38,876 nucleotides of DNA from the IMG/VR virus record IMGVR_UViG_3300033997_000186, positions 1 through 38,876 of that record. One strand, given 5' to 3'. Within the stretch, counting starts at the first letter, position 1. Each line of letters starts with the position of its first letter. The notes beneath the pieces are model-generated. The model ran no database searches, was not told where the DNA came from, and saw nothing but the letters and a program-made list of their open reading frames with translations. The position numbers were made by a program, and so were the translations under genes. Shown here in pieces: positions 128 through 38,455 of this stretch. This DNA is from a virus.

Positions 128-167
128 TTTTGTCCGAGGAGTGGACCAGGCGCAGCGCAGCACTCAT
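1..167 (-). CDS. 5' part of an early ORF that spans the circular junction (continues from 38749 down to 38452; about 154 aa in total)
   Basis: An in-frame ATG at 165-167 (minus strand) overlaps the TGA of the upstream gene (ATGA coupling). The frame stays open through base 1 into the 38452..38826 ORF once the overlap is collapsed. Confidence 0.6.
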   Translation of the reverse strand, partial: MSAALRLVHSSDKSDPIPKSKEALRDHFYAVPGESKEDRAKRLSAERSKRYRLNQ

Positions 168-763
168 AGGGTTTCACCGTTCAACTTGGCCAGGAGCAAC
201 AGCGGCAGCGGGCGACCGGTGCCAGTCGACAAGGCCACCAGCTCGTTGAACATCGCGGCGATAGCCTCGGCGCCCTCTGTGAGCATTTCGTCGACCTGGT
301 CCGGGTCGTCGGTGTGGTCGTACTTGCCGTCGTGCGCCGGGGCGCTGGCGGCGAGGAAGTCACCAACCGCCTGCGTGACTTCACCCAAGCGAGCACGCGC
401 GGCAGGAACACCTACCAGGCCAACGAGCTCATGGATTCGGACGTCGAAACAGCCAGCCATGGCCAACAGCTCGGAGCGGGCGGCCTTCTGGTAGTCCTCG
501 GGCAGGCAGGAGAGCCAGGCCCATTTCCATTCCAGGGGGAACGGCTGGGTTTCGTGGAAAATGCGGGATACACGCTGCGCCCACGCCTTGCGGGTGCGCT
601 GGTAGGCCTCGATATCGGCTGGCTCCTCCATGGGGTCAATCAACCCCGCGGCCGCCAGTGCTGGCGCCAAGCGCTCGCTTGCGAAGCGCTCTAGTGACCA
701 GTCCGAATGGGCAAACCATCGGCTAGTCTGATCGACAACCACGTCGCGTTCTGTCCGAGTCAT
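164..763 (-). CDS. First gene of the leftward early operon, divergent from cI. Hypothetical; possibly a CII/YdaT-like regulator.
   Basis: ORF track 164..808. I prefer the ATG at 763, which is preceded by GGAAAGG. There is a weak by-eye resemblance to the YdaT / 186 CII pattern (W..R....ET.P.P.E....L.LPED). No Cro-sized ORF is present. Confidence 0.6.
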   Translation of the reverse strand: MTRTERDVVVDQTSRWFAHSDWSLERFASERLAPALAAAGLIDPMEEPADIEAYQRTRKAWAQRVSRIFHETQPFPLEWKWAWLSCLPEDYQKAARSELLAMAGCFDVRIHELVGLVGVPAARARLGEVTQAVGDFLAASAPAHDGKYDHTDDPDQVDEMLTEGAEAIAAMFNELVALSTGTGRPLPLLLLAKLNGETL

Positions 764-811
764 ATAGCACCTTTCCCTGAAAAATGGGTCGCATGTATCC
801 CTGCCCACATT

Positions 812-856: not shown

Positions 857-911
857 TGGTGCCGCTAGGCATTCCGAGGGGAAAATAATGCTTAGAAAAG
901 GAGAGGGAACC

Positions 912-1577
912 ATGCAACGCGATTTCACAATCGGCACCGCAATACGGACGCGGCGGCAAGCCCTTGGATGGTCGCTGCAGCGCCTGATCGACGCCTCGAA
1001 TTTGGAGATGTCGACCGGCCACCTAGCGACCCTAGAAACGAAGGACGTCGCCCCGAGCGTCTATGTCGCCGACGCACTGGCGAAAGGCCTGGGGACGACC
1101 GTCGACATACTGCTCAAAGAGGCGAGGAATCCGAATGGATTCACAGCGCCCAGCGAGCACGCCCAGCGCGTGCCTGTCATACCGTGGGCGCTGGCAGCCG
1201 AATGGGTGAAGAACCCCGACCCTACAAGGCTTCCAGCCGGTACAGCATGGGTGATGCCGCCCGAGTCGCCAGCGGGCCGGGTGTTCGCTATGACAGTGCG
1301 CGATGAAGGCATGCAGGCGCCGACCGGTGTCAGCTTCCCGCCTGGCTATACGATTTTCGTCGACCCTGCTCGAAAGCCGGTTGCCAATGATTTCCTGGTC
1401 GCTCACCTGAGCGACCAGGCCGCGCCCGTGTTCAAAAAACTGACACTCGACGGTTCGGCGTACTATTTGCGCGCACTAAACCCGCAGTTCCCCATGGTCC
1501 AGGTCGGTGATACATTCGAGAGCATTGGTGTCGTCGTCGGCCTGCGTGCTGGCTTCGACAAAGGGGGGATTCTATAA
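912..1577 (+). CDS. cI: Lambda-CI-type prophage repressor (XRE HTH plus S24/LexA-like C-terminal domain; nucleophile Ser replaced by Gly)
   Basis: The C-terminal half aligns by eye to lambda CI: VRDEGMQAPTG..FPPGYTIFVDP...FKKL...LNPQFPM versus VEGNSMTAPTG..FPDGMLILVDP...FKKL...LNPQYPM. There is an alternative ATG at 888. Confidence 0.9.
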   Translation: MQRDFTIGTAIRTRRQALGWSLQRLIDASNLEMSTGHLATLETKDVAPSVYVADALAKGLGTTVDILLKEARNPNGFTAPSEHAQRVPVIPWALAAEWVKNPDPTRLPAGTAWVMPPESPAGRVFAMTVRDEGMQAPTGVSFPPGYTIFVDPARKPVANDFLVAHLSDQAAPVFKKLTLDGSAYYLRALNPQFPMVQVGDTFESIGVVVGLRAGFDKGGIL

Positions 1578-1840: not shown

Positions 1841-1910
1841 TTTGTACTTTTTTACTTTTGTACTTTTGACCAAAGGGACAAAATGACAAACGTACAAAAG
1901 GACAAGGGCC
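1841..1910. repeat. Array A of 8-bp units (4 x TTTTGTAC-type then 5 x AAAAGGAC-type), overlapping the repA RBS and start codon
   Basis: tttgtac ttttttac ttttgtac ttttgacc aaagggac aaaatgac aaacgtac aaaaggac aagggcc, with a strict 8-bp register. Confidence 0.7.
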
Positions 1911-4900
1911 TGGCCGGCTTTTACGAGGAGCGGTTTAACTCCGACCCGTACAGCCTCATGGCTTACTTCGACGCTCAGATCAGCGCTGCAGCTGCTGACG
2001 TCTCTCTAAAGTGGTCTTCCGTCTCCAGCGCCGTGCGCCTCAACGGCAAGCCGCTGGCCAAGTATTCAAAAACCAAACCTGTTGCCCTCGAAACCCGTTA
2101 CCACGGGAAGGTGATGGTTTGGGGCGAGGTGAAGGAGACCGCCGCCAAGGACGACCTGGCCGAATTTGAATACCCGTTCCTCACCTTCTCGAACAACGTC
2201 ACCGGGTCGAGCACCTGGTCAGGCTTTACTGCGCTCCTCGAACTTTACAAGGATTCCCGCGGTGTCGTCTCTGACGATCGCCACCGCAAATGGCAGGCCG
2301 AGCAGGAAAAGCGGCGCGCCGAGCGTGAAGCCAAGCGCGAGGCCGAAGAAGCGGCCGAGCGCATTCGTGCCGAGCGCGTGGAAAAAGAGCTGGCGGCGTA
2401 CAAGCACGCTTGGCTGACCGGCGAGCGCGGCGAATTCGACTACGAAGGCACCAGCCGCGGCCGCGCCTACATCGGGCGCGGGTTTGTCGAGGTCCTGGGC
2501 GAGGAGGACGGCAGCTCTCCTTACTTGCAGGCGAAACAGATTTCTGACGTAGCGTCACGCTTCAAAATGTTGAAAATGCGTGACCGTCACGGTGAATTCA
2601 CCGCCGTTCCTCTCTACGATGCCTATCGAAATTTCCTCGGCCTGCAGCGCCTCTATGCTGACAAAAAGCTGCAGGGGACCGGCGTCAAGATGGCTGGCGC
2701 CCATTGCATCCTGGGCGACCTGGAAACCGCGCAGGTCCGTTTCGCGGTCGAAGGTTTCGCAACCGGCGCCAGCATCTACCTGGCAGAGCTCGAGGCCGGC
2801 CGTAACGTTGCGGTCGTCGTGACCTTCAACGTCGACAACCTGGTAAAGGTGCTGCATGTCTATGACAAGCTGTATCCGGCCTGGCGCTTCTGGAATGGCG
2901 CCGACAATGACCAGTGGAAGACCTCAGGCAATGCCGGCTTGCTGGCGGCCCTGGAAGTGCATAAAGAGCTGCAGCACCCTGGCATCGTTCCGCAGTTCAA
3001 GCTGACCGAGGAGCAGATCGCCGAGGCCAAGGCCACCGGCAAAGGTCCGACCGACTGGAACGACTTCCACGTCCTCTACGGCCTGAAAGCCACAGCCAAG
3101 GCTCTGCATGCCCGCGCCAGCGTGTTTCACGCCCAAAAAGACTGGTTCAGCTACTGCCTGCAGCGCGTCGAGCGCAGCGGGCGTTTCGCCGAGAAGGCCG
3201 CGAAAATGGCGATCAGCGGCGGCATGAACCTGGTCCCGATCAAGTACAGCACCGACGACGTCATTCGAGCGGTGCTCGAGGTGCTTCCCGCCGTGGCACC
3301 GGTCGAGCTGCGCACGAAGCTGCGTAGCCTGGCCTTGTGGATCGCCAACCAGCGCCGCAACCAGGCCCAGCAGCTGCGCAGCTTCTCGCCTGACGCCTTG
3401 AACAAGCCATATGTGCAGTACATGCCTATCGCTGCAGTGCCGCACCCGGAGCACGGCAGCCCGATGCTTCCTGGCCACCTGGCCGACCTGGTCGAGAGCC
3501 TCGAGGGGACCATCATCGTTCGCGCCCCAATGGGCAGCGGCAAAACCGAGGACCTGATCGCACCCGTACTGCAGGCGTCGACCAAAGGCGCTTATATCGC
3601 CCACCGAATTTCCCTGATGGATGATGCCACCGCCCGCTTGAACCTGGACCGCGAAGGCAACCAGGTCGACGCCAAAGTCGAGCATTACCAGCTGGTCAAC
3701 GCCTGGCAGATGCCCTACGTCTCGCACCTGACCTGCTGCGTCAACAGCCTGACCAACAAGAAATTTTACAACGCCGAGGACCGCAGCTGGTTTACCACTC
3801 TCGAAACCATCTGCATCGACGAAGCGAGCCAGGTTCTGCGCCATGTCACCTCAGGCCCGGTAGAGGGCCGCGTGCGCGTCATGGACGCACTGATCGAGGC
3901 CGTCAGCTCGGCCAAGCGCGTCGTACTGTGCGACGCCGACGCCAATGACTCGGTTATCGAGTTCTGTGCCTTGGCGCGTCCTGGTCAGATCATCACCGTT
4001 ATCGATATCCAGGGGCAGAACAAGCAAATTCGCGTCGACCACGGCGACGACGAAAGCGTCTGGCAGCTGGCGATCGACAAGATCAGCGAAGGCCGTCGGG
4101 TGATGGTTGCCAACGACTCGGCCGAGAGTGCAAAGAAAATGGCGGCCCTCATTGAGCAGATGGTCGAAGCCGGCGAAATGCCCGAGCGGCGAATGCTCCT
4201 GGTACACGCTGACAGCAAGGCCGACCCGGACGTCGAGGCGTTCCTCAGCGACCCGAAAAGCGAGGCCCTCAAGTATGACGTGCTGATCTACTCGCCCGCT
4301 ATTTCGTCGGGCGTCTCGATGAATCAGGCGCATTTCGAGTGCCATTTCGGCCTGTTCAGTGGCAACTCTGTCGGGCCATCCGACGCCCTGCAGATGCTTC
4401 GCCGCGATCGGACGGCAACCCACTACATCATCGGCATCGGCCACAGCTCGAGCCAGCGGGAAACGAACCCCGAGGTTATGTATCGGGGCATGATGGTGCT
4501 CGAGGAGCTGGCCTGCCAGATCGAGAACACCCCCGAGGAATTTCGCGTCGTGCGCAAAAAGACTGCATTCGACAAGGTCTATCTGTCGACTGTGACCTCT
4601 GAGAACCGCGCCCGCGCCAACTTTGCCAACAACCTGCTGCTGATGCTCGAGGCCGAGGGCTACCTAGTCCAGCGGCTCGACCTGCAGGGCGCCGAGGAGG
4701 AGCTCGCCGAGCTGTCCAGGATCAATCGCAAGTTCGCCGCCGAGCTGGTTTTCAGCAAGCGTATGGACTTGATCGAAAGCGTAACCACCCCCGACGAAGC
4801 CGAATTCTTGCGCCTCAACCGCCAGGAAGTGCGCAGCGAGGCCGAGAGTGCCCGCGTCGATCGCTACCACATTGAGCACCAGCTCTGCGTGGACGATATC

Positions 4901-5731
4901 AGCGCCACCGACGTCGCTTTCTACGATGATCGCGGTATCGACAAGGTGCGCGCCCTGGAGCTGCTGCAGTCCACTGCCGAGCAGGCCAAGGGTTACGACC
5001 TCGCCCAACGCAAGGCGCGGTCGGTCCTCACGCAGCATCGATTCAAGGCAGCTCCTCGCGCCATGCTCGAGGAGATTTTCGCCATCCTGACCCTGGACCG
5101 CATGACAGGCCTCGGGGAGTTCAACAGCGACCAGTGCCGCGAGGTCCGGGACCTGATCAAGTCCGACCAGGACACGCTGGATATCTACAATACCCTCAAG
5201 CTCGGCCGCTACATCCCGACGCTGGCCTCTAAGGTCTGCGCCACCACGCTTGTGAAATCGATCCTCGACCGCCTGGGCCTCACCACGAAAAAGCGTAAGA
5301 CGAACGGCCAGAACCTTTACCAGCTCAACATGGATAATTGGCACTTCGTTATGGGCTACTTACAGCGCCGCGCTGCCCGAAACGTCCACTCCCTGGCTGC
5401 CCATGAGCATGAAACCACGCACCAGCCCCTGCTGGCCCCTGAGGAGCCCGCAGATGCACCTGCGTATGTGTTCGCTGAAAGCAGGGACACTTTGCATTGT
5501 GAGGGTGTAAGCACAGATGAAAAGTATCCCTTGGAGGTAATCGAGCGGATTTGTGCTGTTGCTTCGCTTTGCGAGCTCCCCCCCGGTATCTCTGTTGCCC
5601 GCCTGGTGGGGGCGCTCAGCCCGGACCTGGTCAACCAGGTGACGGGGCCGAACGCGGACATGGCGGCCGCCAAGTGGACGTTGGATTATGCGGCGCGATT
5701 ACTTAGCCAGGAGACGCGGTATACTGTATGA
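1883..5731 (+). CDS. repA: RepA-like replication protein (Toprim primase domain plus helicase/NTPase), N15 RepA type
   Basis: 1282 aa. Toprim-like motifs EGFATGAS and ADND. Walker A (APMGSGKTE) and Walker B (ICIDEASQ). Position next to cI and telN matches other telomere phages. Confidence 0.85.
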   Translation: MTNVQKDKGLAGFYEERFNSDPYSLMAYFDAQISAAAADVSLKWSSVSSAVRLNGKPLAKYSKTKPVALETRYHGKVMVWGEVKETAAKDDLAEFEYPFLTFSNNVTGSSTWSGFTALLELYKDSRGVVSDDRHRKWQAEQEKRRAEREAKREAEEAAERIRAERVEKELAAYKHAWLTGERGEFDYEGTSRGRAYIGRGFVEVLGEEDGSSPYLQAKQISDVASRFKMLKMRDRHGEFTAVPLYDAYRNFLGLQRLYADKKLQGTGVKMAGAHCILGDLETAQVRFAVEGFATGASIYLAELEAGRNVAVVVTFNVDNLVKVLHVYDKLYPAWRFWNGADNDQWKTSGNAGLLAALEVHKELQHPGIVPQFKLTEEQIAEAKATGKGPTDWNDFHVLYGLKATAKALHARASVFHAQKDWFSYCLQRVERSGRFAEKAAKMAISGGMNLVPIKYSTDDVIRAVLEVLPAVAPVELRTKLRSLALWIANQRRNQAQQLRSFSPDALNKPYVQYMPIAAVPHPEHGSPMLPGHLADLVESLEGTIIVRAPMGSGKTEDLIAPVLQASTKGAYIAHRISLMDDATARLNLDREGNQVDAKVEHYQLVNAWQMPYVSHLTCCVNSLTNKKFYNAEDRSWFTTLETICIDEASQVLRHVTSGPVEGRVRVMDALIEAVSSAKRVVLCDADANDSVIEFCALARPGQIITVIDIQGQNKQIRVDHGDDESVWQLAIDKISEGRRVMVANDSAESAKKMAALIEQMVEAGEMPERRMLLVHADSKADPDVEAFLSDPKSEALKYDVLIYSPAISSGVSMNQAHFECHFGLFSGNSVGPSDALQMLRRDRTATHYIIGIGHSSSQRETNPEVMYRGMMVLEELACQIENTPEEFRVVRKKTAFDKVYLSTVTSENRARANFANNLLLMLEAEGYLVQRLDLQGAEEELAELSRINRKFAAELVFSKRMDLIESVTTPDEAEFLRLNRQEVRSEAESARVDRYHIEHQLCVDDISATDVAFYDDRGIDKVRALELLQSTAEQAKGYDLAQRKARSVLTQHRFKAAPRAMLEEIFAILTLDRMTGLGEFNSDQCREVRDLIKSDQDTLDIYNTLKLGRYIPTLASKVCATTLVKSILDRLGLTTKKRKTNGQNLYQLNMDNWHFVMGYLQRRAARNVHSLAAHEHETTHQPLLAPEEPADAPAYVFAESRDTLHCEGVSTDEKYPLEVIERICAVASLCELPPGISVARLVGALSPDLVNQVTGPNADMAAAKWTLDYAARLLSQETRYTV

Positions 5732-5774: not shown

Positions 5775-6059
5775 TTGCAGTGCCAGGAAAAAATGGACCG
5801 AGCGTCCGAGCAACTCAGTCGCGCCAAGTCGGCGCTTAGTTTGGCCATGAAGGCCGGTATGGAAGCAACACGAGGTGAACTGCTGGACGTTATCGCCGCG
5901 GTATTCGAGAGGGTGGAGGGAGCAGAGACGGCACTGCGAGCAGGAGAAAACAAGGATGCCCAGCCGGGGCAGTTGACCCCAGCTGGTTCGAGAACTGATG
6001 CGGTGCAAAATCAGTTGCGGGTTGTTCCTTTCGCCGCCAGCGCCAGCAGCGCGTCATAA
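5775..6059 (+). CDS. Small ORF between repA and telN; candidate SOS-controlled antirepressor / induction factor
   Basis: A strong SD (AAGGGGAGGG, 5759-5768) sits 6 nt before a TTG at 5775, with an in-frame ATG at 5793. Predicted to be helical and acidic. The 3' end overlaps the telN 3' end convergently. Confidence 0.5.
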   Translation: MQCQEKMDRASEQLSRAKSALSLAMKAGMEATRGELLDVIAAVFERVEGAETALRAGENKDAQPGQLTPAGSRTDAVQNQLRVVPFAASASSAS

Positions 6060-7645
6060 GCACCCGCTTTGCTGTCACCGTCCGCCCTGGCGATTTCCAC
6101 GCCATTGAGTCGGGCGACAGCGACCCAGCGGCCAGCGTCCTCTGTCACCGAGATACGCGGCTTAGCATTGACCACCTCTGCCGGAACAGCCGGCGCGACC
6201 GCTCGACTTGAGCGGTTCGGGGTCGCCAGGGCTTCACTGGCCATAGCCAGGTAGTCCTTGATCGCTTGCCGGTGGCTGCCTACGTTCACAGAGATTGCTT
6301 TCTGCGAGATAAGGACGTCAGGCGAGGCGGCCACAGCTTGTTTCACCCATGCGTGAATACGCTGCGAAGCAACACCGCCCGCGGCTTGTTCGTCGAGCGC
6401 CTCGAGCGCCTCGAGCCGGCTGCCGTACTTGCTTTCGGGCTCGGCCGGGACGTCGTTGGTGTAAGTGATCTTGAAAGCCTTGTAGCTCTCCTGGGTGTCC
6501 ATGTCTTCATGGCCCAGCATTTCCCGCCAGAACACCGTTTCGTTGACGCTTTTCCAGCGTGCATCCCGCGTGAAATGAGTCTCGAAAACGATCCTCGCCC
6601 ATATCGCCCGGCTGTCCTTGAACACGCGATCGGGGCTGCCCAGCACCCGCTTGGCCACGGTGTTTAGGGTCTTGGCCACACGCCGGTTTACCTCGATGTT
6701 GTCCAGGTGCTGCAGCTCCAGGACTTCGGGCAGCACCCGCAGGCGCTCGAGCGCCTCGAGCACCAGGTCAGCCTTGAGCAGGGTGTAGATGCGGTAGCTC
6801 GAGCCGTAATCGACCCCGTTCCGGCGCTTGGCCTGTCCGCTGAATTCGAGCTCATACTCGCCGGCCTTCTCGAAGCGGCCGAGCTTGAGCACCTCGATTT
6901 CACGGCGGCCCGTGACCATCGCCAGCCCCATCGCCAGCGACGAGAAGCGCTGCACCGGCTCGCCGTTGGCGCCGATTTCAGCGTCGGTCAGCAGGCGCTG
7001 CGCGGTGTCGACATACTGGTAATAGTTGACCTCGACAGTATTGGTCGCGCGCTCCTCAAGGGTGGCCGTGGCCATGGTGGCCAGCTCGGCCTTTGTGACC
7101 GCGGGCAGCACCAGATGCCGCATGATTTCGTGGTCCAGCTTCATCGCCTGGATAGCCTCGAAAGCGTCGTGGTCGCGGTCCTGGCGGATCTGCGCCAGCA
7201 GCTCGCGGTGCGCGAGCCGCAGCTCGGTGATGTTGTCCAGGTCGACCAGGGCGAGCAGCTGCTCGGCGTACCGCGGGTGATGCTTAGCCAGGCGCCTGGC
7301 CGACTCCTCAATGCCATGGTGGCGCCAGTTCTGCGCGGTCACGGCCTTGCGGACGAGGGTCAGGTAGCGGCGATAGCTCGACGGGCGCAGCTTGTCGTCG
7401 TCCTTGCGGCGCTTGTCCTCATACAGGCGCTTTTTCAGGCTCTCAGCGATGCGCGTGATGCGCTTCGTCTTCTCGCTGCGCGACATGTGCGGGTCGCTGT
7501 CCACCAGCCTGACGTCCTGCAGCATTTTGTCGATCATGGGCTGCAGCTCGACCTTTTGCCGAGTAGCCCCGCCGTAGTTGCCAAAGCTGGCGCGCTCCTG
7601 GTCCTGTCCCATCGCCTCATCACCCTTCGTCAGTTCGTCGCTCAT
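6011..7645 (-). CDS. telN: Protelomerase (telomere resolvase)
   Basis: Matches remembered N15 TelN blocks: TGRREIEV / SGRRMIEI, FSGQAKRR / FSGQAKKR, IYTL, VFKDSRAIWARIVFE / VYKDSRAIYARIAYE, RWK.V.E.VF..EMLGHEDMDTQESYKAFK / RWKNVDEDVFFMEILGHDDENTQLHYKQFK. I prefer the ATG at 7645 over the TTG at 7711. Confidence 0.95.
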   Translation of the reverse strand: MSDELTKGDEAMGQDQERASFGNYGGATRQKVELQPMIDKMLQDVRLVDSDPHMSRSEKTKRITRIAESLKKRLYEDKRRKDDDKLRPSSYRRYLTLVRKAVTAQNWRHHGIEESARRLAKHHPRYAEQLLALVDLDNITELRLAHRELLAQIRQDRDHDAFEAIQAMKLDHEIMRHLVLPAVTKAELATMATATLEERATNTVEVNYYQYVDTAQRLLTDAEIGANGEPVQRFSSLAMGLAMVTGRREIEVLKLGRFEKAGEYELEFSGQAKRRNGVDYGSSYRIYTLLKADLVLEALERLRVLPEVLELQHLDNIEVNRRVAKTLNTVAKRVLGSPDRVFKDSRAIWARIVFETHFTRDARWKSVNETVFWREMLGHEDMDTQESYKAFKITYTNDVPAEPESKYGSRLEALEALDEQAAGGVASQRIHAWVKQAVAASPDVLISQKAISVNVGSHRQAIKDYLAMASEALATPNRSSRAVAPAVPAEVVNAKPRISVTEDAGRWVAVARLNGVEIARADGDSKAGAYDALLALAAKGTTRN

Positions 7646-7647
7646 AC

Positions 7648-7982
7648 ATACACCCTTTGCCCTAGTGAAAGATAGCAGGCTATTGCCATACACCCATAGC
7701 CCGCGTGTCAATAAGCATCATTGTACACCCATTGCCAGTGCATGTATACACCCATTACCCAATCTCACCTAATATACACCCATAGCCCAATATACATGGC
7801 TTAGTGCGCTCTATATTGGGCAAAGGGTGTATACACCGATCCCCCATTCTATACGTATAGAATGGGGGATCGGTGTATACACCCTTTGCCCTATGACTAT
7901 TTAGGGGTATGGGTGTATACAGGTACGGGCTATGGGTGCATGGGGATAGAGGGCTATGGGTGTACATATACACCCATAGCCC
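7648..7982. repeat. Array of about 11 copies of a 16-mer family, TAYACACCC(A/T)T(A/T)GCCC, arranged symmetrically around the tel palindrome
   Basis: Forward copies start near 7648, 7687, 7722, 7744, 7772 and 7877. Inverted copies start near 7818, 7905, 7928 and 7951, with one more forward copy at 7968. A 32-bp near-palindrome lies at 7951-7982. Confidence 0.8.
7818..7891. other. Telomere resolution site (telRL-like): 74-bp perfect palindrome centred between 7854 and 7855
   Basis: GGGCAAAGGGTGTATACACCGATCCCCCATTCTATACGTATAGAATGGGGGATCGGTGTATACACCCTTTGCCC, with every pair checked by hand. The core CCATTCTATACGTATAGAATGG resembles N15 telO, CCATTATACGCGCGTATAATGG. Confidence 0.9.
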
Positions 7983-35193: not shown

Positions 35194-35331
35194 GCGGGCG
35201 CCTCCATAACGGAAAAGCCCGCACGCGGCGGGACAGGAATAGGCCAAAGCCTGAGGGGGGGGGAATGAGTGGCCGCGGGATGCGGCCGGGGAGGGCTTAC
35301 TACCTGCCTCCAGGTGCGATCGCCAGAAACG

Positions 35332-35356
35332 AAAAAGCCCGCTCAGTGGCGGGCTT
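35332..35356 (-). terminator. Rho-independent terminator between the candidate late promoter and the lysis genes (tR'-like)
   Basis: AAGCCCGCC-ACTGA-GCGGGCTT stem-loop followed on the minus strand by TTTTTCGTTTCTG. Confidence 0.8.
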
Positions 35357-35380
35357 GGTCGTATGTATCGCAGAGTGGGT

Positions 35381-35410
35381 AAATTACCCGTTTTCGCGTC
35401 ACTTTTGCAA
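35381..35410 (-). promoter_or_regulatory. Candidate late promoter (-35 TTGCAA, 18-bp spacer, -10 TAATTT) overlapping a 13-bp perfect palindrome GGGTAAATTACCC (35377-35389)
   Basis: Read on the minus strand. It sits between array D and the terminator, in a lambdoid PR'-tR' style arrangement. Confidence 0.4.
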
Positions 35411-35422
35411 GGGCCTTTTTAA

Positions 35423-35471
35423 CTTTTTGCCTTTTGTACCCTTTGCCTTTTTGCCCTTTGTACCTTTGTAC
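35423..35471. repeat. Array D of six direct 7-9-bp TTTGTACC / TTTGCC units upstream of the candidate late promoter
   Basis: ctttttgcc ttttgtacc ctttgcc tttttgcc ctttgtacc tttgtac. Confidence 0.7.
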
Positions 35472-35827
35472 TATCCAGCAGCGCAGCGGCGGCCATATCG
35501 TTTAGCCCACAATTCCGCCTGGACCTGCAGATAGGCGCGCACCTCATTTGCCAGCGCGACCGGAATCCGGTCAGGGAAACTCAGCTCAACCCGCACCAGG
35601 TCGCAGCATTCTACTTCTGGCTCAGGCGTAGGCGCGGTCATTGTCGCGAGCGCAGGCACAACCTCGACCAGCTCGGCGTCAGGCGTCTTGATGATGTTCA
35701 CATACCCCGACGGCTCGCGGGTTATGAATTCGTCGCGGTCGTGGCCTAGGAACTTGACCACTTCGCCAATCTTGTCGGCGTACCAGTACGAGCTGTTACT
35801 GCAGCCCGTGATCAGCAGCATTTTCAT
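35471..35827 (-). CDS. Hypothetical protein (118 aa), last gene of the early operon
   Basis: ATG at 35827, 2 nt after the upstream stop. Confidence 0.55.
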   Translation of the reverse strand: MKMLLITGCSNSSYWYADKIGEVVKFLGHDRDEFITREPSGYVNIIKTPDAELVEVVPALATMTAPTPEPEVECCDLVRVELSFPDRIPVALANEVRAYLQVQAELWAKRYGRRCAAG

Positions 35828-35829
35828 TG

Positions 35830-36147
35830 TCACCTCACAGCCCGGGCCCAGCCGGCTCGAGCACCTTCGATTGTTGCGTAACCATGATCGACAAAGTCGC
35901 AGCCGGCGCACCGGGAGCCCCATTGCCCACCACTGGAAAAGAACCGGGCGACGCCGTTGGCCTTGCAGGCATGCGCGGGCATTTCAGCGTCGTTGACCAG
36001 GCTCCAGGAGGACAGAGCCCTGGCCTCTACCGGGTGCGCCTCGCCGCGGTTGTTGCACACCGGACAAATCCACATGACTCGACCGGAGTCGACCTGGTGG
36101 CGACGCTCAGGAGCGACGCCGCAGTGCAGGCAGGGCAGGGCCGACAT
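35830..36147 (-). CDS. Cys-rich protein with one complete and one partial Lar-like zinc-ribbon unit
   Basis: CLHCG...CPVCN...ALSSW, then C....RCAGC...ARAGW. Confidence 0.5.
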   Translation of the reverse strand: MSALPCLHCGVAPERRHQVDSGRVMWICPVCNNRGEAHPVEARALSSWSLVNDAEMPAHACKANGVARFFSSGGQWGSRCAGCDFVDHGYATIEGARAGWARAVR

Positions 36148-36149
36148 GA

Positions 36150-36554
36150 TCAGTAGCTCGAGTCGGAGCTGCTCGAGCTGCCGCTCGAGTCGCTGCTGCT
36201 GTAGCTGCCCGAGTCGAACCCGCTGCAGCCGCTCGAGGAGCTCGAGCGACTCCAGGAATCGTCAGAGACGCTCGGTGCGCACTGGGCCACCGGCTCAGGG
36301 TCGCGACGAGGCGCCTCGGCGTAGTAGATCGCCGGCTGATTCATCGGGTTGAGTGGGTGCAGAGGGTGCAGCGGGTCGTGCACGCTGCTGGCGCTCGAGC
36401 TCGAGGAGCTGCTCGAGGAGGCGCGGCCAGAAGGCAGCACAGCAGAACGACCAGGAACAGGCACGGCGACCGACAGGCGATCGCGCAACCCCTGGCGCGC
36501 CTGCTCAGCGACCGCCAAGCGGGTGGCGCGGCGACGCTTGAACCATCCGAACAT
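36150..36554 (-). CDS. Serine-rich low-complexity protein (134 aa)
   Basis: MFGWFKRRR..., an S9 run, HPLHPL, and a C-terminal SGSYSSSDSSGSSSSSDSSY. High GC3 and tight coupling to the flanking genes support a real gene. Confidence 0.55.
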   Translation of the reverse strand: MFGWFKRRRATRLAVAEQARQGLRDRLSVAVPVPGRSAVLPSGRASSSSSSSSSASSVHDPLHPLHPLNPMNQPAIYYAEAPRRDPEPVAQCAPSVSDDSWSRSSSSSGCSGFDSGSYSSSDSSGSSSSSDSSY

Positions 36555-36564
36555 AGAGCTACCC

Positions 36565-36717
36565 CTATTTCTTGCCAACCATCAGCACCGCCAGCAGCAA
36601 AGCGACGATCACCAGGTCAGCACACATCGAGAGGAGTCGACTTGCAGAATCGACCAGGACAACGGCGCCGGCCAGCCCGAAGGCCAGCCAGTTCCGAGCA
36701 GAGGAGAGCCAGGTCAA
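36565..36717 (-). CDS. Possible 50-aa membrane peptide (TTG start overlapping the TerB-like stop)
   Basis: Hand translation gives LTWLSSARNWLAFGLAGAVVLVDSASRLLSMCADLVIVALLLAVLMVGKK. Not in the ORF track. Confidence 0.3.
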   Translation of the reverse strand: MTWLSSARNWLAFGLAGAVVLVDSASRLLSMCADLVIVALLLAVLMVGKK

Positions 36718-37151
36718 GCCGTGACCCCGAAGTCTTTCAGGCGCAGGCCGAGCTCGTTGGCGATTTCTTCCAGGACTTTCAGTTCGTCCGGGCTGATACT
36801 GCCGTCACCCTCGGCAACGGTCAGCATGTTGACGAGCACCTCCTCGGCGTCGGCCGGGCTGTCCTTGATATCGCGAATCTCGCGCATGATGTTCATGCGG
36901 CCGAGACGGAAACCGGCCTGCAGCTGCTCGGTGAACAGGTTCACTTGCTTGGTGATTTCCGGGCCGAAGTGCTCCAGCGCCTTGTTGGCACGAATCTGGA
37001 TATCGATTTGCGCCGCTTCAGCCTTGCTGATTTCACCGTCAGCCGCGGCAACCAGGAGGCAGCCCCCGACGATCGCCTGCATCAGGTCGCGGTTTTCGAG
37101 TTTCTTGATGCTACGGCCAGCGCCAAACAGCTTTTTCTTGAGTCCTAACAT
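36714..37151 (-). CDS. TerB-family (tellurite-resistance TerB-like) protein
   Basis: 145 aa. AADGEISKAE and AEGDGSISPDELKVLEEIA resemble the two TerB DG-S-EE motifs. Confidence 0.6.
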   Translation of the reverse strand: MLGLKKKLFGAGRSIKKLENRDLMQAIVGGCLLVAAADGEISKAEAAQIDIQIRANKALEHFGPEITKQVNLFTEQLQAGFRLGRMNIMREIRDIKDSPADAEEVLVNMLTVAEGDGSISPDELKVLEEIANELGLRLKDFGVTA

Positions 37152-37162
37152 GGGGGCTTTCC

Positions 37163-38008
37163 TCAGGGTTTACGTTGGTTGAATTCTTTCCAGAGCGCCT
37201 CGAGCGCTTCGGTGTCGAGGCCGTCCAGGACGCTTTGCATCGCATCCCAGCGAGCACGCCAGTGCTCGCGAAAATTGCTGTCCTTGATGCCCAGCAGGCG
37301 AGCCAGGGCCGGGCCGTCGTAGCGCTGTAGGCCGGTGTTCTTGACGAATTTGTGTTCCTGCACCGCCAGGTGCGCGAGGCCCTTGGCACGCTGCAGAGAC
37401 TTGCCCTGCAGCTTGCCCAGCTGGGGCAGCACGCGATCCCACAGCACCACCACGCAGCCCGCTTCGTCGTCCCACTCGCGGGAATCGCCGTAGGCGTAGC
37501 GAATCCACCGGCTCAGCTCAGGCGCGAGCGTGCCGACGGTGCGCACCAGGTGCGCGTCCTCGAAGGCCGTCGAGCCGAGAGGAATGCTGCTTTTCTTCTT
37601 TGGCCGCGTCTCGCTGCAGGTCACTCGCGTGGTATCCCTGGCCAGGCTGGCCACGTAATCAAATGGAAGCCGTCCAGGGGCCTCGGCGCCCTCGAGCGGG
37701 CACTCGCCCAGCTCAGCGGCGCGGCCGCGAGGGAAGGCGTCGCGCAGCGGCTTGCGCTCCTCGACCGCCACCCACGTAGGCACCGGCTCGGGGCCTTCGG
37801 GCTCCCGGTAGCCGGTCGGCGCCAGGTAGGCGAACAGCAGGCGATCACGAAGCCAGACCAGGTCCTGCGCCGTTGCGCCAGTTGGCGCTTTGGCTTTCTT
37901 GGCCTGCAGCTGGCGCGGCGCCAGGTCAGGCAGAAGCACCCAGCACTCAGCACCAGGTGCTGCTCCAGGGTGGCGAATTTCGAGGGTGAAGGGCTGGCGG
38001 GCAGTCAT
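37163..38008 (-). CDS. Hypothetical protein; its C-terminal half is possibly a Q-type late-gene antiterminator/activator
   Basis: RWIRYAYGDS and ALARLLGIKDSNFREHWRARWDAMQSVLDGL weakly resemble the 82/QuuD-type Q pattern. Its position upstream of the promoter-terminator-lysis arrangement is consistent. Confidence 0.35.
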   Translation of the reverse strand: MTARQPFTLEIRHPGAAPGAECWVLLPDLAPRQLQAKKAKAPTGATAQDLVWLRDRLLFAYLAPTGYREPEGPEPVPTWVAVEERKPLRDAFPRGRAAELGECPLEGAEAPGRLPFDYVASLARDTTRVTCSETRPKKKSSIPLGSTAFEDAHLVRTVGTLAPELSRWIRYAYGDSREWDDEAGCVVVLWDRVLPQLGKLQGKSLQRAKGLAHLAVQEHKFVKNTGLQRYDGPALARLLGIKDSNFREHWRARWDAMQSVLDGLDTEALEALWKEFNQRKP

Positions 38009-38220
38009 GCGCAGCACCTCATGGCCTGCAGGCTGCTGATGCAGCTGGTGCACCTGGTCGCCCACGAACAGGCAGCCAGGCGCGGCGGGTCGATCCGCTC
38101 GCCACAGATGCGGCACGACAGCACGCTCGCGACTTCGCGCAGCGACTGATCGGTCTGGAACTCCTTTTCTATGGCGTCGTCGGCACGGAGCTCGAGCCCG
38201 CCAAGTACATCAGTGGACAC
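38005..38220 (-). CDS. TraR/DksA-family C4 zinc-finger protein
   Basis: CRICGERIDPPRLAA....TRCTSC. GTG start. Confidence 0.6.
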   Translation of the reverse strand: MSTDVLGGLELRADDAIEKEFQTDQSLREVASVLSCRICGERIDPPRLAACSWATRCTSCISSLQAMRCCA

Positions 38221-38455
38221 GCGCTGGCTCCCGCTGACTCAGGGCGCTGGCTACGGCGTAGCTCGCGTTCCGCTGGCTGAAACCGTCCACGAAGCCCTTG
38301 CAGGCATCAGGCTCGGCGAAATAGTAGTTGTGCACCTGGTGGCCGGTCGCCGCTTTCACCACGACGCAGGCCTCGGACAGGCCGCCACGGGCAGGCAGCT
38401 CGACCACCAGGGCGCCCTGGCCACCTGCTACGCGAAAGTATCGGATGGCTTTCAT
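38210..38455 (-). CDS. Hypothetical early protein (81 aa)
   Basis: ATGA-coupled to the upstream gene. Confidence 0.5.
   Translation of the reverse strand: MKAIRYFRVAGGQGALVVELPARGGLSEACVVVKAATGHQVHNYYFAEPDACKGFVDGFSQRNASYAVASALSQREPARVH

Follow-up and report, generated by a model that had tools for sequence, protein, structure and literature searches.

The window analysed here is the whole of a 38,876-nucleotide (nt) viral sequence, IMG/VR record IMGVR_UViG_3300033997_000186, and the locus in question is a string of small genes at positions 35830-37151, between a gene for a Q-like antiterminator and a late-promoter-like element. Four tightly packed open reading frames (ORFs), all on the minus strand, lie here: tciA, encoding a 145-amino-acid (aa) TerB-domain protein (36714..37151), tciB, encoding a 50-aa peptide with two hydrophobic segments (36565..36717), a gene for a 134-aa Ser-rich protein (36150..36554) and a gene for a Cys-rich, 105-aa tandem zinc-ribbon protein that we call Lar-like (35830..36147). 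The gap between the Q gene and tciA is 11 nt, tciA and tciB overlap by 4 nt, and the following gaps are 10 nt (tciB to the Ser-rich gene), 2 nt (Ser-rich to Lar-like) and 2 nt (Lar-like to a fifth coupled ORF of 118 aa, 35471..35827, minus strand). An earlier reading of this DNA from its letters alone (the sequence-only reading) had described the first four ORFs, without the fifth, and all were found as described, including the S9 run, the HPLHPL motif and the C-terminal SGSYSSSDSSGSSSSSDSSY of the Ser-rich protein. Its further claim that no described phage system has this combination did not hold: the core pair corresponds to tciA-tciB of phages P1 and P7, which occupies the same Q-to-holin slot in lambdoid phages, and in phages phiHAP-1 and VP882 a Lar-like gene 3' of Q belongs to the backbone. 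The explanation that we hold, with rather better than even confidence, is that the region is a mosaic of three separable accessory units at the tail of an early operon, one of which would be a TciB-TciA membrane pair.

All four ORFs were confirmed as genuine genes under purifying selection, like the endolysin gene of these phages. The GC content at third codon positions (GC3) in the called frames is 0.74-0.82 for the four ORFs and 0.72 for the 118-aa ORF. Ratios of nonsynonymous to synonymous substitution rates (dN/dS) against relatives are 0.09-0.23 for TerB, 0.15-0.21 for TciB (but 0.81 in one 49-codon comparison), 0.16-0.48 across 11 comparisons for the Ser-rich protein and 0.17-0.29 for the Lar-like protein, compared with 0.16-0.37 for the endolysin control. 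The 118-aa ORF continues the gene string: its N-terminal ~56 residues (MKMLLITGCSNSSYWYADKIGEVV...) are kept across relatives while the C-terminal part is swapped between lineages, and by tblastn 13 of 14 related lineages encode this domain, in every case 3' of the Lar-like gene. No family match was found for this ORF.

TciA, whose N-terminus reads MLGLKKKLFG, scores 53.3 bits against the Pfam TerB family PF05099 (cutoff 24.4, E 4e-14), with residues 26-141 aligned to positions 3-113 of the 118-position profile. It also matches phrog_632 (E 2e-52) and aligns along its full length with the solved Klebsiella TerB structure 2JXU_A (E 5.7e-10, query 13-143 against chain 20-151), which upholds the earlier assignment of this protein to the TerB family. 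A weak match to the NCBIfam DjlA family (E 2e-6) was also obtained. In a tblastn search, TerB homologs were retrieved from 132 deposited phage records, including P1 tciA and P7 terB.

The tciB gene begins with a TTG codon that lies within the sequence TTGA, which also contains the tciA stop codon, and both the TTG start and the TTGA overlap are kept in all five Pseudomonas-phage copies of tciB (5/5). Its product matches phrog_1470, annotated as 'TciB-like' (E 1.3e-10), so the overlapping, TTG-started membrane peptide of the sequence-only reading is well founded. Hydrophobicity peaks at residues 10-22 and 31-47, and the C-terminus ends in basic residues. An alignment of the window peptide with those of P1, P7, JLK-2012, PPyecE, SP-076 and LIET2 shows a core motif common to all, and the window peptide has VLVDxxSRxLSxxAD in common with TciB of P1, P7, JLK-2012, SP-076 and LIET2. 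Overall, the peptides run from a basic N-terminus through a hydrophobic stretch, (V/I)D(F/S)xS(R/T)xxSxx(A/S)D and a further hydrophobic stretch to a basic tail. A tblastn search of deposited phages with the 50-aa peptide, run with the low-complexity filter on, returned nothing useful.

This gene arrangement recurs in very different phages. In P1 and P7, tciA (terB) is followed by tciB, with a 1-nt overlap, and then by tciC, within the C1-controlled ban operon. In the Escherichia coli lambdoid phages JLK-2012 and PPyecE_EH1910, tciA-tciB lies between Q and the holin gene with a 4-nt overlap and a GTG start, and in Klebsiella phage 1 LV-2017 an unannotated TciB-type peptide comes after TerB, with the pair following Q. 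TciB-type peptides are also encoded 3' of TerB in the N4-like Salmonella phage FSL SP-076, Pantoea phage LIET2 and an Erwinia jumbo phage. By homology and gene order, the TerB gene and 50-aa peptide gene of the window are the tciA-tciB pair as annotated in P1 and P7.

Comparison with 14 related Pseudomonas-phage lineages showed that the pair comes and goes as a unit. Both genes are present in five of the 14 (the window, L009, L013, L017 and L019-22) and both are absent in the other nine, never one alone, although these frequencies are biased because the lineages were collected with the Ser-rich and Lar-like proteins as seeds. Where the pair is present, identity is 84-92% for TerB and, in the same comparisons, 63-70% for Q and 46-56% for the Ser-rich protein. 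Alignment with L024, a close cassette-less relative whose Q protein is 93% identical, revealed a clean 597-bp insertion/deletion, and in L024 the sequence GGGAAGCTCT-ATGTTCGGATGG (the Ser-rich start) directly follows the Q stop codon. The same alignment showed that the cassette is bounded by 9-nt ATGTT(A/C)GGA repeats, with a left copy, ATGTTAGGA, at the tciA start (37143..37151, minus strand) and a right copy, ATGTTCGGA, at the start of the Ser-rich gene (36546..36554, minus strand). The repeat stems from the MFG or MLG with which both proteins start. The complete five-gene order also occurs in the distant relatives L009, L013 and L017, but the four genes are not kept together as a single module, given that TerB-TciB is found in only 5 of the 14 lineages. 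Comparable variability has been reported for P1-like phage-plasmids, where tciABC is a variable region that was lost in approximately half of subgroup 1 (PMC9603915). One 50.9 kb record, IMGVR_UViG_3300044878_000188 (L017 and L018), has the Q-to-lysis region in two diverged copies, of which one includes tciA-tciB and the other does not; two related phages may have been merged in assembly, or the copies may be in tandem.

The gene downstream of the cassette encodes a protein with 38 Ser residues among its 134 (28%). It features an MFGWFKRRR N-terminus, a PLHPLHPLNP motif, the S9 run, HPLHPL and a Ser/Asp/Tyr tail, and its Ser runs are coded largely by palindromic TCGAGC/CTCGAG repeats. It has 26 close-to-moderate homolog clusters, and in an alignment of the family the non-repetitive motifs MFG..KRR, PLHPLNP, PEP and SDDSWSR, two Cys residues (one in CS) and a terminal Tyr are invariant down to 48% identity. 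A profile search of 1.84 billion representatives identified 43 proteins at E <= 1e-3, all of 120-155 aa and with a single architecture: an N-terminus that is aromatic and basic (MFGWFKRRR or MWPFDIFxKRR), then a charged helix, [DN]PL[HN]PLNPLSPL and a Ser/Asp/Tyr/Cys/His-rich tail, which mostly ends in an aromatic residue. Remote relatives are encoded in nin-like regions of other temperate phages, beside NinG and a NinI-type phosphatase, and TerB, TciB and Lar-like genes are absent from those regions. AlphaFold2 modelled one helix, at residues 15-27, with a predicted local distance difference test score (pLDDT) of 51. The Ser-rich protein is therefore a real and conserved member of an uncharacterised phage family, and it is predicted to be largely disordered.

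There is no Pfam or NCBIfam family for the Ser-rich protein, tblastn of this protein and two remote relatives against deposited phages gave no match with the low-complexity filter on, and a species-representative genome scan detected the gene in one genome only. In L036 (3597-3998), the gene caller of the source missed the gene, so that Q seems to be followed by an empty stretch of 428 nt, and the family may often be missed by automated annotation. Phage TciA proteins from all lineages examined (L001-L042) begin MFG[ILW]FK[KR][KR], an N-terminal motif that they have in common with the unrelated Ser-rich family and that may serve as a membrane or partner docking motif. The idea that the MFGWFKRRR N-terminus forms an amphipathic helix was unsupported, as its hydrophobic moment is low. 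At the DNA level, CTCGAG (the XhoI site) occurs 68 times in the 38.9 kb window, compared with approximately 13 sites expected by our own estimate from base composition, and eight of these fall inside the 405-bp Ser-rich gene, a cluster that arises because its Ser runs are coded by TCGAGC repeats.

The Lar-like protein contains a four-ligand zinc ribbon followed by an E-A-x-x-W helix twice over. In an alignment of 19 homologs, the residues C6, C9, C28 and C31 of repeat 1, followed by E41-x-RA-x3-W48, and H59, C61, C80 and C83 of repeat 2, followed by E94-x-ARA-x-W100, are invariant, which agrees with the tandem Lar-like, Cys-rich protein proposed by the sequence-only reading. The N-terminal half matches TIGR03655 (the Lar family) with E 2.5e-4 and 21.3 bits, under the 39.6 cutoff, and the C-terminal half matches phrog_6795 (E 6e-8), while the Pfam Lar family PF14354 gave no match even at E <= 10. 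AlphaFold2 (pLDDT 69) predicted two hairpin-plus-helix halves. A Foldseek search with this model returned nothing at E <= 0.001, and its top matches, which are suggestive only, were Rpb9, with two zinc ribbons, and short 'restriction alleviation' proteins; one 56-aa 'restriction alleviation protein' was matched with a probability of 0.97 and a template modelling (TM) score of 0.74, but with E 0.4. 'Lar-like' thus denotes a modelled, fold-level resemblance to restriction-alleviation proteins and not an established family membership.

The Lar-like protein is 45% identical to phiHAP-1 gp43 over its full length (105 of 101 aa, E 2e-26) and 29% identical to VP882 gp65 (E 2e-14), and both of these are encoded directly 3' of Q in genomes where the Ser-rich and TerB genes are absent at this position. 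In the Pseudomonas aeruginosa relative L034, the Lar-like gene also comes after Q, and the Ser-rich slot is taken by another protein, of 104 aa, which keeps only the MFGW..RRR N-terminus. Judged by these alignments, the Lar-like protein is clearly the ortholog of phiHAP-1 gp43 and VP882 gp65, and its gene is a backbone accessory gene of the phiHAP-1/VP882-type phage group.

The gene string is flanked by regulatory functions on both sides. The Q-like antiterminator gene (longest ORF 37163..38116, minus strand) matches Pfam PF06323 (E 2e-14) and phrog_304 (E 8e-37); relatives are called from an internal Met at ~38008, which gives a 281-aa protein. The closest described Q proteins are those of Halomonas phage phiHAP-1 and Vibrio phage VP882, with 40% identity to each. 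Downstream, a 220-nt gap that separates the 118-aa ORF from the holin gene holds a late-promoter-like element and a terminator (35326..35410, minus strand), identified by terminator scan, sequence, conservation and RNA folding: a -35 box TTGCAA (35410-35405), an 18-nt spacer, a -10 box TAATTT (35386-35381) and, ~25 nt past TAATTT, a hairpin intrinsic terminator with a T-run (35356-35335). The terminator element folds at -31.6 kcal/mol (z = -3.6), and the only Rfam result was a sub-threshold Trp-leader match on the terminator. The whole element (TTGCAA-18-TAnTTT) is near base-for-base identical in 10 of 12 relatives, where neighbouring proteins are just 40-70% identical, and it looks like a lambdoid pR'/tR' unit. 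The element is immediately 5' of the holin gene, and the earlier view that the cluster falls between Q and the late promoter is borne out. A-rich direct repeats, GGTACAAAGG / GGCAAAAAGG / AGTTAAAAAG, lie directly 5' of the -35 box (35411-35470, minus strand) and are kept in relatives; these could be an UP element or a site for Q or another regulator. There is no promoter between Q and tciA because the gap is only 11 nt. The sole sigma-70-like site in the cluster (36578-36550) was considered as a promoter for the Ser-rich gene and rejected, as it overlaps the ATG of that gene.

Long antisense ORFs on the plus strand run over tciA and tciB (36349-37182, 277 aa) and over Q (37352-38149, 265 aa). 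The 277-aa ORF has third-codon positions in common with tciA, by our own arithmetic from the coordinates, and was treated as a high-GC shadow ORF rather than a gene. Because long plus-strand ORFs overlap Q and TerB, a counterpart of qtiQ (gp63), the antisense gene of VP882, was sought, but no homolog was found.

The rest of the genome identifies the type of phage. The window encodes a protelomerase (6011-7711, minus strand; PF16684, E 4e-30), a 1282-aa RepA-like protein (1883-5731, plus strand), a cI-type S24 repressor (888-1577, plus strand) with homology to VP882 cI, a homolog of VP882 gp60/QisA (164-808, minus strand) and a homolog of the DksA/TraR-like gp41 of phiHAP-1 (38005-38220, minus strand). 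As these occur together with a phiHAP-1/VP882-type Q, the window is, on its gene content, a Hapunavirus-like telomere (linear plasmid) phage of Pseudomonas, with a complete-looking, circularly permuted genome. Records of P. aeruginosa, P. monteilii and P. frederiksbergensis contain relatives, and megablast of 35400-38300 gave no DNA-level match among deposited phages. In VP882, a repressor-controlled promoter PR drives qisA-traR-q, and Q switches on the lysis genes (bioRxiv 10.64898/2026.07.27.740977).

Within this framework, the region is the promoter-distal tail of a repressor-controlled, PR-type early operon, and three separable accessory units lie in it. The first is the 597-bp tciA-tciB cassette, which starts right after the Q stop codon and runs precisely up to the following start codon, and the others are the Ser-rich disordered protein and the tandem zinc-ribbon Lar-like protein. 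TciA would be cytoplasmic, and TciB may form a translationally coupled, two-helix inner-membrane hairpin that tethers or partners TciA. In the chaperone DjlA, a TerB domain adjoins a transmembrane helix (bioRxiv 10.1101/2024.08.29.610257), and TciA plus TciB could represent a two-chain version of this layout. The pair would then act at the inner membrane during lytic growth. Protection of the envelope from stress and the exclusion of phages and toxins are phenotypes historically tied to ter operons, and we tentatively suggest, at odds that we would still put well short of even, that the pair conditions the envelope against stress or excludes superinfecting phages and pore-forming toxins. An envelope role is favoured because all known contexts of the pair (the P1 ban operon, the lambdoid post-Q position and the early operon here) are under lytic-cycle control. 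A role in superinfection competition has likewise been proposed for phage Ter genes in a review of jumbo phages (PMC7824862). A bolder scheme, which we regard as unlikely, is that TciA and the Ser-rich protein are two cargoes whose common N-terminal motif brings both to one host partner or one site at the inner membrane; the family with Ser/Asp/Tyr/Cys/His-rich tails would then be a new class of early effector, such as a phosphorylation- or metal-dependent polyanionic membrane decoy, and TciA-TciB could be a general superinfection or anti-defence device at the membrane level.

Several observations weigh against a membrane pair with such a function. TerB occurs alone in phages PMBT3 and Cygsa01, and in AF and Ebordelon it is paired with a different, 67-aa membrane protein, so TciB is not obligatory for TerB function. 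This other protein (unannotated in AF, L006 3423-3700; L042 1643-1846 in Ebordelon) has one transmembrane segment and a conserved YGWQTERETKYxxFVGCMV segment. In Vibrio phage vB_VpaP-MS02 (L037, 69-1617), a TerC/Alx-family membrane protein is encoded directly 5' of the TerB homolog, so that phage TerB has a membrane partner of yet another kind there. TerC, TerD and TerE were not detected among the nine products scanned from Q to the spanin, and the authors who described PMBT3 considered a lone TerB unlikely to give tellurite resistance (PMC8421299). The P1 tciA label was assigned 'by homology' alone, and we found no published functional test of TciA or TciB. In a CRISPR interference screen of P1, tciABC proved non-essential and dispensable for plaque formation (PMC10695390). 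The seeding of the lineage survey, noted above, belongs with these points.

Other accounts of the locus were weighed against the same data. The sequence-only reading had proposed a single co-functional anti-defence or host-takeover module, here of four (or five) coupled genes. Their tight packing speaks for it, with probable co-transcription and translational coupling; the whole five-gene order recurs in L009, L013 and L017, PHROGs places TerB, TciB and the Lar-like protein in the class 'moron, auxiliary metabolic gene and host takeover', and TciA and the Ser-rich protein begin with the same MFGxFK[KR][KR] motif. We nevertheless consider such a module very unlikely, since TerB-TciB is missing from nine of 14 lineages that retain the other genes, Ser-rich relatives occur without TerB or Lar-like genes and phiHAP-1, VP882 and L034 have the Lar-like gene but lack the Ser-rich one. 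No defence-system model in PADLOC-DB matched either, the one match being sub-threshold (E 0.039). Another view, that the Ser-rich ORF is an untranslated, low-complexity, repeat-rich spacer, could appeal to its Ser content and palindromic repeats, its predicted disorder, its lack of a Pfam or NCBIfam family and its omission by one gene caller in L036. This is extremely improbable in light of an in-frame GC3 of 0.82, purifying selection in 11 comparisons, non-repetitive motifs that stay invariant down to 48% identity and 43 profile matches of the same length and architecture, and the sequence-only reading was right to list it as a gene.

Two further proposals concern the TciA-TciB pair itself. 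It might be a lysis-timing or holin-modulating membrane complex that adjusts proton-motive force or the triggering of the holin. In favour of this, E. coli lambdoid phages, Klebsiella LV-2017 and the window all have the pair between Q and the lysis cassette, and TciB resembles holins and antiholins in being a small membrane peptide. The lambdoid Q-to-S slot is, however, a general moron insertion site that also receives stx genes, tRNAs and nanS-p. The pair of P1 and P7 belongs to the ban operon, a long way from the lysis genes, and those of the N4-like, Pantoea and jumbo phages are among replication or unrelated genes, so we judge a lysis-timing role quite unlikely. It is highly doubtful, in our view, that the pair is a lysogenic-conversion trait conferring resistance to tellurite, colicins or phages, as plasmid ter operons do. 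Homology to the TerB of ter operons speaks for this, the historical P1 annotation says as much, and the defence system Shango contains TerB domains (PMC10250203). Against it, the operon has no TerC, TerD or TerE partners, the 11-nt gap upstream of tciA is too small for a promoter of its own, with the sole promoter-like site overlapping the Ser-rich start codon, and genes in a repressor-controlled early operon should be silent in lysogens. A mosaic of accessory units with a TciB-TciA membrane pair thus remains the explanation that we prefer.

Collectively, these data correct the interpretation of the locus from a novel four-gene system to a mosaic of accessory units of known type, and current understanding is not overturned. 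TciA-TciB is among the most widely scattered phage accessory pairs, with examples in P1-type phage-plasmids, lambdoid prophages of pathogenic E. coli, and N4-like, jumbo and telomere phages. Natural phages that are near-isogenic but either have or lack the cleanly bounded 597-bp cassette make the function of TciA-TciB directly testable, while the Ser-rich family represents a recurrent and conserved early-region protein that is unstudied.

The closest known counterparts of the cassette are the pairs of P1, P7 and the lambdoid phages (JLK-2012, PPyecE_EH1910 and the CP-933 family). These likewise comprise a ~145-aa TerB protein with an MFGxFKKK-type N-terminus and a hydrophobic peptide of 50-55 aa with the same core motif, whose start abuts or overlaps the TerB stop, and they are likewise dispensable and variably present; the lambdoid pairs are also in the Q-to-holin slot. 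The window TciA is 34% identical to P1 TciA and 62% identical to P7 TerB, and tciB starts with TTG where P1, P7 and the lambdoid phages use ATG or GTG. P1 also encodes TciC, a 35-aa transmembrane peptide that starts MGFWDF; the window lacks a homolog, as JLK-2012 lacks tciC, and the likeness of P1 TciC to the Ser-rich protein of the window is limited to a faint M-[FG]-[FG]-W resemblance seen by eye. The distance from Q to tciA is 11 nt in the window, ~0.5 kb in JLK-2012 (three tRNA genes) and ~2.7 kb in PPyecE (several genes), so that the lambdoid gaps leave room for a late promoter. The window pair lies 5' of the late promoter, in the early operon, whereas the P1 pair is part of the C1-controlled ban operon.

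For the Ser-rich protein, the nearest described groups are PHROG 13684, 14209 and 36151, which it matches weakly and its remote relatives match at E values down to 6e-10; these groups and the Ser-rich family have the same length, NPLNPLSPL motif and Ser/Asp/Tyr tail. Lar, the restriction alleviation protein of the Rac prophage, has the same CxxC...CxxC zinc ribbon followed by an E-A-x-x-W helix, but in the window protein this unit is duplicated in tandem and the second copy has H-x-C in place of the first CxxC. Any alleviation of type I restriction by the tandem form would be putative. The window TciA is homologous over its full length to Klebsiella TerB (2JXU), a representative of the TerB of plasmid and chromosomal ter operons, which carry TerZ, A, C, D, E and F, whereas the window operon is without these partners. 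DjlA has a membrane-proximal TerB-like domain that TciA weakly resembles, as well as a J-domain that TciA lacks, and any membrane anchor for TciA would come in trans, from TciB.

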